A DNA stretch of 64,000 bases from Escherichia coli (GCF_003991155.1 NZ_CP031297.1); one strand, 5' to 3'. Shown: positions 9,001-33,000, counted from the first letter of the stretch. A program made the numbers.

Positions 9001-12000
9001 TTACCTTCGTAAGGGCAAGGAACTTGTTTGGTAATAACTGTCGCTGAGTAATCTTCGACACTTTCAAACCCATCGGGGCAACCATACCCCGACGGGGATG
9101 TTGCCCCTTTTTGCTTAGGAGCAACATCATGGAAATCGCTATCATCGCTTTGTGTATCCCTGCTGGTTGGGCAATCTCTCGTCCTTTCGTGAGAATCGCT
9201 GAATCGTTCGGTTACTGCTGATAGTCAACGCAAAGGGAGGGGGCAACCCCTCTCTTTCTGGTCAAGCCTCTGTGGCTTGTCCTCAAAGTCTTCTGGTGTC
9301 AGTTGGCTTTGACGACAAGCTACAGGGGGAATGTCGAATGCAACAGAATCTTCATGTTTACGACGATCACGCAGGCATCATCTATCTGGCTGATGGACGC
9401 GAGGTGAAATTTGATCCGAAACTGTATTCCAGCTCCTACCAGGCGCACAGTGAAGCAGTGAAGTGGGCCAAAGAAACCGGGGTCATTGGTCAAAACGACG
9501 ATGTGGTGATGTTCGTCCATTGAGGGAGTAGCCTCCAGGAGAGGCTACTCTCCTCGCTCCTTAAAAGTCTTCTTACTCATGGTGAATACCATCAGTAAGC
9601 AGATTTTGTTCTCTTCGGAGAGCGAAAAGTGCGATAGCTGGTCGCCAAAAACAAACAGCAAATTAACGTTAATTTACTAGCCCAACCGGGCGCATCCGCC
9701 CGGTTCGGGACGTGGTGCGCCTGTCACAATAGGAGCGCACCTATGTCTCAATACTCTCAATTCTCAGTAAGCAAGGTTTTCGGTATGCCCAGCATTCCGG
9801 AGAAGGTAACGGCCATCGGCTACGCTGACGGTTCAAACCCTTTCATCCCTGCCACTGATACCAACTACGTTTTCCGCAAAGAGTTTCTGCGAGAGGTCTT
9901 GGCCTATCTCAAAGAGCCTGGCGGTGACGCATTGTTCGTAACCGGCCCTACCGGGTCTGGCAAAACCTCAGGTATCACCGAGATCGCTGGTCGTCTCAAC
10001 TGGCCTGTTCAGCAAATCACTGCCCACGGGCGGATGGAGCTGACAGATCTGATTGGACATCACGCTCTGGTCGCGGAAAAGCCTGGTCAACCACCTGTCA
10101 TGAAGTTCATGTATGGACCTCTGGCAGTCGCTATGCGTGAAGGTCATCTGCTCCTCATCAACGAGGTGGATTTGGCCGACCCTGCCGAGCTGGCTGGTCT
10201 CAACGATGTCCTTGAAGGGCGTCCCCTTGTGATCGCTCAGAATGGCGGGGAAATCATCAAGCCGCACCCGATGTTTCGTGTGGTCGTTACTGGTAACTCT
10301 ACGGGGTCCGGTGATGCTTCTGGTTTGTACCAGGGGGTGATGATGCAGAACCTCGCAGCTATGGATCGCTATCGTTTCACCAAAGTAGGGTATGCGGATG
10401 AGGAAGCTGAACTCAGCATTCTTGGCCGTGCTACTCCGAAACTTCCGGAAAATGTGCGGAAGGGAATGGTTCGGATTGCTAATCAGGTCCGCAAACTGTT
10501 TCTTGGCGAAAACGGTGAAGATGGTCAGATCAGCGTCACCATGTCCACTCGGACGTTGGTGCGTTGGGCGAAACTGTCTCTAGCGTTCCGTGGTGCCCCA
10601 AATGCTCTTGAATACGCCTTGGATCAAGCTCTGCTTATCCGTGCGGCCAAAGAGGAGCGTGAAGCCATCCTGCGTGTTGCGAAGGATGTGTTCGGGGACC
10701 AATGGCGCTAAGAGGTGACGCATGAAGAAAAATGACTGTTTGTGCCGTCGTTACACTGCTAAAGAGTGGGGCAATGACGAAACCACAATAGAAGTCTTCA
10801 TTGGCTACAAGTTGCTCCGGGAGCCCAGCTCCTCGGAGCCAGGCCAATTCACGATGGTCGAGCTACGCCGAACCGTCACTGATGGGAAAGCTGAAAATTG
10901 GTCTGAGACAAAGCTCGAAGGACCTTTTGAAGCTAACGGCCCAGACACGATCCCAATGTCCTACAAGGACAAAGAAAGCCAGTATGTGTCACAGTTTCTC
11001 AGCCAGGGGTACACCTTTCTGGATGAGGTGCTGGTAAACGCAGAGACACAGACGGTGCTGGAAGGGGGGAATGTTTCAGCCGGACAAACAGCCAGCTTGG
11101 GATCTCTCAACTGGCTGTTATCTCCGCCCTCTGAGTTACCTCCAGGTGACATAAACCTCTTCAAAGGTTTTGTTGCTGGGGTTTTTGCCAAAGGAGCCGG
11201 TTTAATCGGCTTTGAGGTTGCTCGGAGCGAAGGCTCAAATGACTTGCTACCCAGTGTGCTGATGCGTACTGACAGCGGTTATGAGCTTGGGGTTAGCACT
11301 GGACTAGGCGAAAACACTATCCATCCAGCTACGCTGGAAGGCGCTGGTGAACTCCGCCCGGAACATGGTCACAAACCCCTGCTGATGTTGGTTTACCTGC
11401 AACAGCGTTTCGCGGATGACTTTTCAAACGTAGAGAAGCCGCTGGTGGCATTCTGTGATGAACAGGGTGATACCTTCGACTACGAGCGTTTTGATTCACT
11501 AAAACCCCTCATTGAACGGTTTGGTTTCAGCTACGACGAAGTAAGAGCAGATGCAGAAAGGCTTGGCCTTGTATCTGAGCTGATTCGCCTGGCAGAGATC
11601 GACGCCGAACAAGAGGATCACTTTTTTTAACCCTTACGGGGGCTTGCTCCCCGAAAGGGGCGTTGGCCCTCTCCAAATAACTTGGAGGTCATGATGTCTA
11701 AAGGCGTCAACAAAGTAATTCTGGTCGGTAATCTCGGTTCTGACCCGGAAATTCGCTACATGCCAAGCGGCACTGCCGTTGCCAACTTCAACGTTGCAAC
11801 AACGGATACGTGGCGCGATAAGCAGTCTGGCGAGCAAAGAGAGCATACTGAGTGGCACCGTATTGTGCTTAAAGGTCGTTTGGCGGAAGTCGCTGGTGAG
11901 TACCTGAAAAAGGGCTCCCAAGTCTATCTCGAAGGGAGCAACCGCACCCGGAAGTGGACTGACAGCCAACAAATCGAGCGCTACACCACCGAAGTACACT

Positions 12001-30000: not shown

Positions 30001-33000
30001 TAATTCAAATTTCGGCTTTCTAGCTCTGGCCTTGCGCCAACGCCTGATCAAACGCTGGTCACTGATGCACTCTGTTCAACCGGAGTCTGTGTTGGAACAC
30101 AGCGCTGTTGTTACCCTGCTTTCCTACCTGGCTGGCAATATTGCCATTCAGCAAGGGAAGTCGGTGGATCTGGCAGTCATGCTTGCTCATGCTTCGTTGC
30201 ATGATGCAGCCGAGGTTCTCTGTTCGGATGTTGTAACACCGGTCAAGAAAGCAAACGCTGTTTTGCAGCGTGAGTTTGAACGACTGGAAAAGGCCGCAGA
30301 GGACAAACTCATCCAGACTCTTCCCGAAGAACTCCAGGATGCAGTCGCCATAGCCTTCGCTCCCGGTGGCTATGAACAATCACTGGTTAAGGCCTGTGAT
30401 ACCTACTCCGCTTACATCAAGTGCAAACTTGAGGTGGCCGCAGGTAATGGCCTTGAGTTCCAGGATGCTCTCAGCAAAATGGAACGTGTTGTTGCTCAGG
30501 TGAAATCGGACTTCCCGGAAATCGACGCTCTGGACAAATGGTTTGGTAACGGACTCGGCCATTCAGTAGATAAACTGCTGGCAGGGGGTAACGATGACTA
30601 ATCCAATCCCTGGCGACATCAAGATTAAGGACTTTGGCCGCGACCGGAAATTCCGTTCGGTTGATGAGCTTCAAAGCACTTTGTCAGAACAGTACAAAGG
30701 TCAGCATGTCAGCATCGTTTACCCTGCAAAGCCCAGCGGTTTACTCCGCACGGTTTTTGTCAGTGTCGATGATGCTGGTGGCGTGAATCGAACCTATGGG
30801 GACCAGTCTCCTGTCGATTTTTCTGCCATCAAAGATGACCTGTATGTACCAAGTGACCTGTAGGAGAGCACTAGCTATGGTGGTGATCATCGTAAACACA
30901 GGACACTATGAGTTTATCGGCCTTGGTGAGACCCACGGACAAGCCACAGAAGGGCTTTTGAAACGCTGGGACGAACACTGCGAACGTAATCCGGATGCTG
31001 AGTCTGGTTACATGCAGGAGCTGATAGAAGAAGGAAGCGCACAAGTTGTCGAGATGGAGCCCGGCTCCGCCGTAATTTACGGACTTGACGGCTAAGCCTT
31101 CTCAACTAACCCACTCGGGCGCATCATCCCGAGAGGGTGTGGTGCGTCCTAACCAAAAGGAATGCACTATGTCTAACTTTGAACAAGCTCTGGAGCGTAC
31201 TGACGGTAAAACACTGATTCTCAGCAATGGGAGTAAGTGGGCAGGCCAAGACCCGGACAGTATTCAGACTTTACTGGATGTCCTGGGTGACAACGTTCTT
31301 GACCCGATGTTTGAGCAGTATCACTGTTATCGCCCATACCCGTTTGAACCAATGGTGAGGACGGGGCGAAATGGCGAAATGTTCCAGCCTTGGCTTGGGG
31401 CAGCCTGCTTCTTTGGGAACTTCCTGACTGTCTCTCATGTTTTCAACATCATCACGAAAGATGACGGTGTTGTTGAGGCCTTAACAGAGGCGATCCGGAA
31501 GAATATGGCGACTGAACAGTACCAGCAGAATGCCTATGAGCGTTATGCCGGTTGGTTCTACGCTGAAACCAGCGAAGGGTTAAGGCTAGTCTCTCCAAGT
31601 GAGGCTGCCGACATCCGAGCTGGCGCAGTTTCAAAGCTGCGTTACCCAAGAAACTTCGAGGTTATGAAAACTGCGGTTCTCAAAGGTCCTCGATTTGATA
31701 CTGAATTAAGCCGCAAGGCTTCTTAACCCAAACATTAACCCCACGGGGGACATCGGTCCCTGAGGGGATGGTGTCTCCCTCTGAAATTAAGGAGATACCA
31801 ATGATTAAACAGCATTTTCAAAACGAACTGGTTAAGTGTGGATACCCGGATGATCTGACGATTGAGTACAGTCTCGGATACTGCCAGGGGGATGGCGTAG
31901 CCTTCTACGGGGATTTGAGCGTTGATGACGTCAAAGCTCTCATGAATCGCCTATTCAGCACTGAGCCCGGCCAAGTGGATGCTGTCAGCCGCGTGAAGAA
32001 CCTGATGGCACAGAAAGACATTGAGAATATGCTTTCTGTCCTCCGCGAATATGGTTCCTGTGACCTGTCCATTACTCGGAATAGTCACGGGCATCACTAC
32101 AGCCATTGGAACTGCATGAACATCGACGACAACGTGGACTTCACAGGGATCTTCCCTGATGATGATTCCATGATTGGCACCGGCATTGAAGGGATTAACC
32201 AGGATATGGTCGAGCGCTGGCAAGACCTCTGGGAACGCTTTGTGCTGGAGCTGGCGGATGATGTAAAAAGTCTTTCCAAGAAGCTCGAAGCGGACGGGTA
32301 CTCGCTGATCGAGGCCTCTCCATGCGAAGATGAAGTGGTTTGGGAACGGGCCACTGAAAACTACCTGGTGCGTGTTACTGAACTCCCTGAGCGGGATTTC
32401 GATATGGGCCACTGGGATGACGAAGTAAGAGACCAAACAATTTGTTCTATCCTGGAAGGGAAAGAGCGAGTGCTTGGCCTACGTGTTGAGGTACTCTCTC
32501 GTGAAAACGAGATTGTCCTGGGTGAAGAGAGTCTGCACGGCTTGACCGTTGCCAGTGATGACAAGAGCTACGCTGGCTACAGACGAGAACTTCTCCGGGG
32601 AGCTATCCAGCAAACCAGGGACTTTTTCTCTCGCCACCTCAAAGCGGCATAACAAGGCAGGGGGAAACCCCTGCTTTACTTCCCAAGTCTTCTTACTCAT
32701 GGTGAATACCATCAGTAAGCAGATTTTGTTCTCTTCGGAGAGCGAAAAGTGCGATAGCTGGTCGCCAAAAACAAACAGCAAATTAACGTTAATTTATTAA
32801 TCCCTGCGGGAGTCTATCTCCTGCTGGAGATACCTCCCGTTATTTCTGGAAGTATCCATGAACAAATTCCAAGACTTTAAGTTGGTTTATCGTCAAGGTG
32901 GTCGTCGCTTAGAGCGTGTCTTTACGGACACTCTTTACGCGAATGTGAAGCGTGTCGCTGACTCGTTTCCTCCGACCGTTCTTTGGCGCATTCAGCCAGC

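Follow-up and report, generated by a model that had tools for sequence, protein, structure and literature searches.

The CUP repeats of IncN plasmids (pKM101/R46) are multiple near-identical sequences placed 5' of establishment-type genes as shared regulatory modules; they are duplex promoter/operator sites bound by the repressor ArdK, and were reportedly treated by Delver and Belogurov in 1997 as recombination substrates. The put RNA of phage HK022 brings about factor-independent processive antitermination, acting in cis as two hairpins near the promoter, while the early region of phage T7 carries repeated RNase III sites between the genes of a polycistronic transcript, with stable hairpin ends. 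In the preQ1-I and luteoviral pseudoknots a loop and a 3' tail form a second helix of 4 bp, and the RfaH ops sequence GGCGGTAGnnTG stands in the leaders of long operons, F tra included. Here, we describe a repeat family that can be compared with all of these: it lies in a 64,000-nt stretch of Escherichia coli DNA (GCF_003991155.1, NZ_CP031297.1; the whole stretch is called the window below), in a long gene array next to acaB, and its copies are structured RNAs of the coding strand ending in an H-type pseudoknot. Sequence comparison identified the window as IncC backbone, its positions 9000-33500 being 100% identical to many IncC (IncA/C2) plasmids, e.g. pSN254.

The original prediction was of three essentially identical copies of about 120 bp. 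The three copies (A, B and C) are real, lie close to where they had been placed and exceed chance by far, but their identity is only pairwise and mosaic: A equals B over 121 nt (9601-9721 = 14436-14556), A equals C over 112 nt (9565-9676 = 32685-32796) and B equals C over 76 nt (14436-14511 = 32721-32796), copy A agreeing with C on its left side and with B on its right. Within the span first assigned to A (9575-9722), 131 of 148 positions agree with B and 121 of 148 with C. The family also proved larger than had been thought. The 26-nt core TAGCTGG-N4-C-N2-AAACAAACAGCA has seven exact matches on the + strand against 0.01 expected; these seven strong copies score 51–56 bits with a covariance model (loops at 8591, 9635, 14470, 18302, 22716, 26498 and 32755), and the model adds a degenerate copy at 29633-29662, giving eight copies on the same (+) strand between 8.5 and 33 kb. 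There were none on the - strand and none in the other plasmid parts scanned (1–50 kb and 125–173.5 kb of NZ_CP082173), so that within the parts scanned the element is confined to the acaB-adjacent array.

On the coding strand the element folds into two hairpins, P0 and P1, a variable hairpin HP2 upstream of HP3, and a pseudoknot made of HP3 and its 3' tail. The pseudoknot has a first stem (S1) of 4–5 bp, a loop L1 of UA, a second stem (S2) of GCUG paired with CAGC, and an A-rich strand NNNAAACAAA crossing S1. Internal copies have all of these parts, and promoter-proximal copies consist of HP2 and the pseudoknot only, from about +5 of the transcript; their layout of -10 hexamer, about 7 nt, start site, about 4 nt and HP2 puts the promoter in the place of P0 and P1. 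Copy 1 (8562-8616, + strand, like all that follow) is promoter-proximal and has neither P0 nor P1; its HP2 lies at 8566-8580, S1 at 8587-8590/8598-8601, the loop UAGCUGG at 8591-8597, about +29 of the vcrx087 transcript with its mapped start site, and the tail AAACAAACAGCA at 8605-8616. Copy 7 (29613-29662) is a degenerate promoter-proximal form with HP2 at 29617-29628, the loop UAGCUGG at 29639-29645 (about +28) and a shortened tail AAAACAGCA; its S1 is weak and the GCUG:CAGC pairing is retained, and the same degenerate form occupies the orthologous position in IncA and in an Edwardsiella plasmid.

Copies A, B and C, all internal, are the long copies. Copy 2, which is A (9522-9660; P0 9522-9555, P1 9564-9607, HP2 9608-9623, loop 9635-9641, tail 9649-9660), heads the AAA-ATPase/ssb/bet/exo module (ATG 9743), and copy 8, which is C (32654-32780; P0 32654-32677, P1 32685-32726, HP2 32728-32743, loop 32755-32761, tail 32769-32780), heads a small open reading frame (ORF) at 32859 and the vcrx121/toprim module. 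Copy 3, which is B (14381-14495; P0 14381-14395, P1 14396-14434, HP2 14439-14462, loop 14470-14476, tail 14484-14495), has its P1 closed by GCUUUCC (14396-14402) and GGAAAGC (14428-14434) and heads the DUF3150/VWA module (ATG 14578). Copy 4 (18213-18327; P0 18213-18228, P1 18229-18269, HP2 18272-18294, loop 18302-18308, tail 18316-18327) stands wholly 3' of the predicted AcaCD start site of vcrx098, with its loop at about +91. Copy 6 (26415-26523; P0 26415-26437, P1 26438-26473, HP2 26474-26488, loop 26498-26504, tail 26512-26523) has the S1 GCGG/CUGC, which includes a G.U pair. In copy 5 (22611-22741; P0 22611-22625, P1 22626-22681, HP2 22686-22707, loop 22716-22722, tail 22730-22741) the tip of P1 holds the parS core TTTCACATGTGAAA (22647-22660), and thus one copy of the RNA element carries a centromere-like site.

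Two palindromes were recorded alongside the copies. The 14-bp palindrome TTTCACATGTGAAA, the parS core bound by ParB, also occurs at 7251-7264 inside sfx and in the loci L124 and L125; it was rejected as an AcaB site or a part of the element, being the published IncC parS core, distributed plasmid-wide and present in only one copy of the window. A perfect 14-bp palindrome AATTAACGTTAATT stands right after the tail at 9661-9674, 14496-14509 and 32781-32794, in the window only in the three copies A, B and C, and recurs in copies from IncA, Vibrio harveyi and Photorhabdus.

The fold was tested on 140 distinct copies (among the matches listed), gathered with a pattern that fixed the loop and tail and left the stems, P1 and P0 free. 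The 4-bp S1 around the constant loop UAGCUGG was represented by 21 different stems and was 97–99% paired, and the formal count gave double compensatory changes at all four S1 pairs, although the cell counts overstate the number of independent events because many of the sequences are related. The observed covariation score was reached by none of 500 shuffles, pairing in slid controls fell to 20–67%, and wobbles in S1 were asymmetric on the + strand, with 9 G.U against 1 A.C. S2 was 99.8% paired. The compensatory loop-tail change UAGCUAG/UAGC (G-C to A-U) appeared in two independent lineages, Paraglaciecola (L046) and V. harveyi (L003 31806); the other loop or tail variants comprised six compatible with wobble pairing against one disruptive, and the mismatched combination, although permitted by the search, was never seen. 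Since the loop GCUG pairs with the tail CAGC and changes together with it, HP3 and the tail form an H-type RNA pseudoknot whose loop-tail pairing is supported by covariation.

The upstream parts were conserved in the same manner. P1 is closed by GCUUUCC/GGAAAGC, with a complementary 7-mer in 69 of the 81 copies that have the motif (2.6 expected), and it has a compensatory variant ACUUUCC/GGAAAGU and a wobble variant GUUUUCC/GGAAAGC. P0 is a GC-rich hairpin, mostly with a tetraloop, which abuts P1 in 65 of the 69 internal copies. RNAalifold found compensatory changes at 13 of 20 predicted pairs, with U.G as the commonest state at one P1 pair, and folding single sequences from IncC and from distant hosts returned this architecture again, with the + strand more stable than the - strand in most of them. 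What is conserved is therefore base-pairing on a single strand and not a duplex operator, because the sequence changes freely and accepts G.U but not A.C pairs.

Rfam contained no relevant match at E ≤ 1 over 36.5 kb, nor at E ≤ 10 for the 221-nt module, with preQ1-I/II/III, STAXI and ribozymes included in the search. The core strings were absent from the searchable literature, the IncC regulatory papers make no mention of the element, and this folded RNA leader is apparently undescribed so far. The likeness to the CUP repeats, which also place multiple near-identical regulatory modules 5' of establishment-type genes, is functional only: those are duplex sites, while the IncC element is a coding-strand fold 3' of mapped start sites. 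With put it has in common a compact two-hairpin nascent RNA just 3' of a promoter, and a cis action is proposed here as well; however, put has no sequence similarity to the IncC element, no pseudoknot and only one occurrence per operon, and antitermination by the IncC element is a proposal from position and architecture. The small stem, the 2-nt L1, the 4-bp second helix and the A/C-rich strand crossing the first stem are those of preQ1-I and luteoviral-type pseudoknots, but the preQ1 models of Rfam did not match, the gene context is conjugative DNA metabolism and not queuosine, and P0, P1 and HP2 come in addition. The T7 RNase III sites are comparable as repeated intergenic structures; they have no invariant pseudoknot, and cleavage of the IncC element is proposed.

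The leader position is common with ops, and copy 6 has a partial likeness to it (GCGGTAGC), but GCGATAGCTGG is what most copies have instead, their register is shifted by one base with respect to the T-G pause, and a hairpin with a covarying stem presents the motif in its loop. Taking the 12-nt GGCGGTAGnnTG together with a NusG paralogue as the definition of an ops system, the invariant core G(A/G/C/U)UAGCUGG does not contain T11 and most copies do not contain G5; of the array proteins that were scanned, none had a KOW/NGN domain or was a NusG paralogue.

The repeats had first been described as promoter-like, and this label found no support: there is no AcaCD box in the copies, a scan of 8400-27000 gave no sigma-70-type site in the conserved element, and two copies lie inside mapped transcripts. 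The published AcaCD box is of the GCCCNDWWWGGGC type, and AcaCD binds between -64 and -37, counted from the start site. A position weight matrix (PWM) made from the published boxes matched solely at 3879 (traN), 8498 (+)/8520 (-), 18147 and 29548, in agreement with Table S3 of pVCR94, and nowhere inside the repeat; the idea that the repeat itself is the box was discarded, since its sequence is unlike the published motif and the boxes have other positions. The box of the vcrx087 promoter (8498-8525, +) is in Table S3 at 65019-65047 with the start site at 65081-83 (offset 56521), and it overlaps a divergent box for acaB (8520-8493, -). The -10 hexamer TATATT of vcrx087 (8550-8555) is upstream of copy 1 and outside the core, with the published start site falling at about 8560-8562. 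The box of vcrx114 (29548-29575, +) has its published start site at 29610-29612. In these two transcripts, whose starts were mapped by rapid amplification of cDNA 5' ends (5'-RACE) and carried to the window by gene coordinates, the copies are located at +27 to +30. For vcrx098 (box 18147-18174, +) the start site is predicted at about 18209-18211, where the published 5'-RACE has no clear signal.

A sigma-70 consensus scan of 8400-27000 for -35 and -10 hexamers spaced by 16–18 bp gave three sites, none within the conserved element. Promoters of the sigma-54 or extracytoplasmic function (ECF) type in GGAAAGC or CTGG were ruled out by eye, the spacing being unfit. Single-stranded DNA promoters of the Frpo type do not correspond either: the fold is on the coding strand, its stems of 4–18 bp contain no promoter hexamers, and the array is about 55–65 kb from oriT and AcaCD-dependent at steady state, which counts against such a promoter. 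In published RNA-seq all genes from vcrx087 to vcrx125 gave about 0–10 units without AcaCD and thousands with it. The five modules headed by a copy without an AcaCD box behave likewise, a box preceding only three of the eight copies and being absent within 150 nt of the other five. Absence of boxes, absence of sigma-70 sites in the part scanned, the position relative to start sites and the AcaCD-dependent RNA-seq together mean that the copies do not act as constitutive promoters of their own, and that transcribed leaders contain at least three of them.

The former description of the region as one operon array was roughly right. In the annotated gene order, traC to traN is followed by sfx (vcrx085) and acaB on the - strand and then by the long + strand array with vcrx087/088, AAA-ATPase, ssb, bet, exo, DUF3150, VWA, methyltransferase, PAPS-reductase-like and toprim genes; a Tn21-type resistance island begins downstream at about 36 kb. 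The acaB gene (7778-8419, -), divergent from copy 1, encodes a ribbon-helix-helix-like activator of acaDC (PDB 6N8B, E = 1e-135). The array is composed of three AcaCD-driven units closed by terminators, with the other copies internal. This follows from canonical intrinsic terminators with unusually long stems directly upstream of the second and third boxes, one with a 13-bp stem and U-run ending the first unit (17753-17782, +) and one with a 12-bp stem and U-run ending the second (29518-29545, +), just 5' of the third box. A weak Rfam match to ctRNA_p42d (29518-29552), with 30 bits where the gathering score is 50, comes from this terminator hairpin and does not indicate a ctRNA.

A scan of a genome collection for the core gave at least 120 stretches on about 75 contigs among the matches listed, to which the counts below also refer. 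The contigs came from Alpha-, Beta- and Gammaproteobacteria and included complete chromosomes, so that some of the carriers are integrated elements. They contained 177 copies in 119 loci, and just one locus had copies on both strands. Among diverged plasmids, the one of Edwardsiella had eight copies and that of V. harveyi seven (six canonical plus the loop/tail variant L003 31806). Betaproteobacterial contigs had the same layout of traN, a divergent acaB-like gene and a promoter-proximal copy, with further copies heading exonuclease/RecT, SSB/primase and AAA/VWA modules, and this layout also stood beside acaB homologues in Alphaproteobacterial contigs, acaB homologues flanking the first copy in distant hosts. 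Neighbouring genes were most consistently acaB homologues (41 loci), followed by ssb (29) and toprim/primase (20). The distance to the start codon was 57–98 nt in the window with an overall median of 84 nt, and an ORF followed 137 of the 177 copies against 103 of 177 random positions, a weak discrimination that was not relied on. A supposed isolated copy in a foreign plasmid (H64) turned out to be a heavily deleted IncC plasmid, and two loci considered as SXT/R391 (L024, L081) were not SXT-like. Arrays of the Betaproteobacteria type were also met in metagenome-assembled genomes labelled actinobacterium, Hydrogenedentes, Anaerolineaceae, Zixiibacteriota and Planctomycetales (L004, L037, L084, L113/L114, L120/L121); these are likely mis-binned contigs of mobile elements.

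Beyond position and structure, what follows on function is what we infer. Our tentative preference is that each repeat is a cis-acting structured RNA of about 55–140 nt in the long AcaCD-dependent messages of the acaB-adjacent array (vcrx087-vcrx125), acting after initiation; that its specific mechanism is an effect on elongation or termination (anti-termination or anti-polarity) is put forward with slightly more reserve. The target of HP2 and the pseudoknot would be the transcribing complex or a conserved host factor, and, in the manner of HK022 put RNA, they would keep transcription going across hairpin-rich intergenic regions; with the element presented anew at each module head, three AcaCD promoters could serve eight modules. 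P0 and P1 would insulate the fold and would possibly also be a boundary for processing and for stabilising 3' ends. An elongation or termination effect is favoured by the position right after start sites and the repetition behind each terminator-shaped P0, by the long and variable distance to the start codon, by the long-stem terminators at unit ends, and by unpaired nucleotides conserved across classes, which suggest a universal partner. Long stems are reported (PMC10325885) for terminators that withstand processive antitermination. For a put-like RNA, contact with a conserved surface of the polymerase could explain the conservation across hosts.

Several observations weigh against such an effect. 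The invariance of loop and tail is partly by construction, because the collecting pattern fixed them. P0, a hairpin in 65 of 69 internal copies, is followed by only about three U within 8 nt, a stretch that the GCUUUCC arm constrains, in comparison with the long U-runs of the unit-end terminators, and there is possibly little to antiterminate. The element stands at every module, which is unusual for processive systems; it has no sequence relation to nut, put, EAR or ops and no match in Rfam, and the array proteins scanned included nothing like NusG, N or Q. An N-like antiterminator from the first genes was also dismissed, as the product of vcrx087 is a small membrane protein, that of vcrx088 is acidic, and Pfam matched neither. 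Finally, Rockhopper puts operon breaks at the copies, and in some cases expression is higher after a copy than before it, which processing and stability, or internal promoters, would fit at least equally.

An intercistronic processing and stabilising cassette, comparable to the RNase III-processed early region of T7, is nearly as good an explanation, even if taken on its own it is somewhat unlikely. P1 would be cut, P0 would guard the upstream 3' end, and HP2 with the pseudoknot would become the protected 5' end downstream. This agrees with a stable tetraloop P0 directly against P1, a P1 duplex of 14–18 bp, an HP2 that starts, in promoter-proximal copies, some 4 nt after the mapped 5' end, and operon boundaries exactly at copies with expression that can rise across them; why three proteobacterial classes keep the pseudoknot loop, S2 and the A-rich strand nearly invariant would, however, be left unexplained. 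Conserved unpaired nucleotides, the H-type geometry and the presence of one element in multiple operons would suit a sensor co-regulating all modules, either a preQ1-I-like aptamer or a binding site (operator) for a protein that the element itself encodes, such as SSB (ssb being present in 29 loci), as in the leader of phage T4 gene 32. We consider this improbable: a single module found nothing in Rfam even at E ≤ 10, the start codon is at a long and variable distance with unrelated hairpins between, the copies have no recognisable expression platform in common, and no RNA-binding domain was detected among the array proteins scanned.

Two further explanations operate at the level of DNA. If the internal copies were duplex promoter/operator modules switched on by a secondary AcaCD-dependent factor, e.g. 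AcaB, it would be clear why downstream genes depend on AcaCD though no box accompanies five of the copies; AcaCD also activates acaB, the gene linked most consistently to the element, predicted operons begin at the copies, and analogous repeated promoters are known in the CUP/ArdK system of IncN and in the Reg576-controlled establishment promoters of p576. The selection on base-pairing, with G.U but not A.C, is nevertheless a single-strand signature, three copies are in leaders 3' of AcaCD start sites, the scan of 8400-27000 revealed no -35/-10 hexamers in internal copies, and Pacr1, a known AcaB target, has no copy of the element, all of which makes this reading very improbable. The lowest probability is given to a single-stranded DNA fold on the transferred strand, a priming or loading signal of the G4-type ssi-like kind with three hairpins, used in conjugation by the Zn-ribbon/Toprim primase and SSB of the array. 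The element is strand-specific, multi-copy and multi-hairpin, primase/toprim and ssb genes co-occur with it, and CTG is found in the loop; but wobble pairs are frequent, with U.G the commonest state at one P1 position, the position relative to mapped transcription starts is fixed, and the copies are clustered in one 25-kb array and not plasmid-wide. A classic single-stranded DNA promoter, moreover, needs a fold of the template (-) strand, which the asymmetry of G.U and A.C contradicts.

Whichever function is assigned to the RNA, the identical stretches of 76–121 bp recombine at the DNA level as a side effect, producing natural deletions of 4.8, 18.3 and 23.1 kb. The original prediction named the copies as recombination substrates and suggested a comparison of related plasmids for deletions ending in them, and exactly such deletions were found, with all three predicted junctions present in natural IncC plasmids. 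Synthetic junction sequences for A x B, A x C and B x C matched 4, 2 and 3 of 861 records, respectively, end to end at 99.9–100%, the A x B records being four Salmonella plasmids, and gene order verified the deletions (A x B 4.8 kb, A x C 23.1 kb, B x C 18.3 kb). Among the plasmids with natural deletions are pSNE2-2012K-0663, pCFJY-17 and pRM101_1. The identical copies explain recurrent backbone deletions which remove the recombination module, and their recombination may account for the non-transferable IncC plasmid of a 2026 preprint, with a deletion of about 20 kb spanning ssb-bet-exo. A paper on IncC rearrangements describes IS26 events only, in the resistance region. In the IncC plasmid NZ_MK123267.1 (H61) the alignment to the window ends at 9539, just 5' of copy 2, and this break may be an insertion or a rearrangement endpoint beside the repeat.

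Gene conversion, which had been suggested together with recombination, also found support. The long copies are near-identical within IncC (0–2 positions differing between paralogues) and within IncA (2–5), yet orthologous copies of IncC and IncA differ at 11–14 of 79 columns, with flanking coding sequence 95–97% identical. The three copies of a more distant plasmid show 16–24 differences from each other, and the IncC trio resembles the Edwardsiella B copy while the IncA trio resembles the Edwardsiella C copy. The copies are thus homogenised by gene conversion (concerted evolution), which is here seen acting on regulatory RNA modules within one plasmid.

A leader common to the genes at 14578 and 23234 had also been pointed out correctly: 14527-14561 equals 23182-23216 exactly (35 nt), or over 43 nt at 98%, and the same leader precedes the gene at 9743. 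Its first instance (9684-9745, +) forms two predicted hairpins, the second of which encloses the AUG of the AAA-ATPase gene together with its Shine-Dalgarno sequence (z = -4.9). The second (14519-14580, +), before the DUF3150 gene, likewise has Shine-Dalgarno and AUG sequestered in the predicted fold (z = -5.0), and the third (23174-23236, +) is located before the gene at 23234 (z = -3.3). This leader is a separate module, as no pseudoknot element is present upstream of the instance at 23174.

Other features of the window were noted in passing. The first gene behind copy 1, a vcrx087 homologue (8714-9034, +), encodes a small membrane protein without a Pfam match, whose C-terminus EPDWDYLEIPTYLRKGKELVW resembles the conserved C-terminal peptide of FtsZ (DYLDIPAFLRKQ); from this resemblance, the tail could mimic the FtsZ peptide and engage FtsZ partners, and a PDB sequence search with it returned nothing usable. 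A second family of intergenic GC-rich hairpins (AACCCCA-CGGGG...CCCCG-AGGGG), free of U-tracts, is positioned between genes inside modules at 9066, 12240, 18965, 22209, 23544, 29017 and 31737 (+), and a similar AACCC-hairpin often occurs 3' of the pseudoknot tail in other hosts. The resistance island contains exact direct repeats of 300 nt (40900-41199 = 45784-46083), overlapping two intI1 regions, and of 265 nt (52298-52562 = 63736-64000); both pairs are ordinary integron or insertion sequence (IS) duplications and unrelated to the element.

It is possible, though rather doubtful at present, that the element represents a new class of self-sufficient regulatory RNA on broad-host-range conjugative plasmids and integrative and conjugative elements across Proteobacteria, co-ordinating 'establishment' genes (ssb, recombinase, primase, methylases and ATPase/VWA modules) independently of the transfer operons; it could then be a factor-independent antiterminator, a riboswitch for some signal or a self-processing RNA. 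The occurrence of the motif across three proteobacterial classes suggests an old, host-independent mechanism, and makes the motif a simple marker for finding such conjugative elements. IncC plasmids are major carriers of multidrug resistance, and accounts of their regulation have dealt with the action of AcaCD, AcaB, Acr1 and Acr2 on DNA. An RNA layer heading each ssb/bet/exo/primase/methylase module would add a control point after initiation, and would explain the AcaCD dependence of the five modules that have no AcaCD box.

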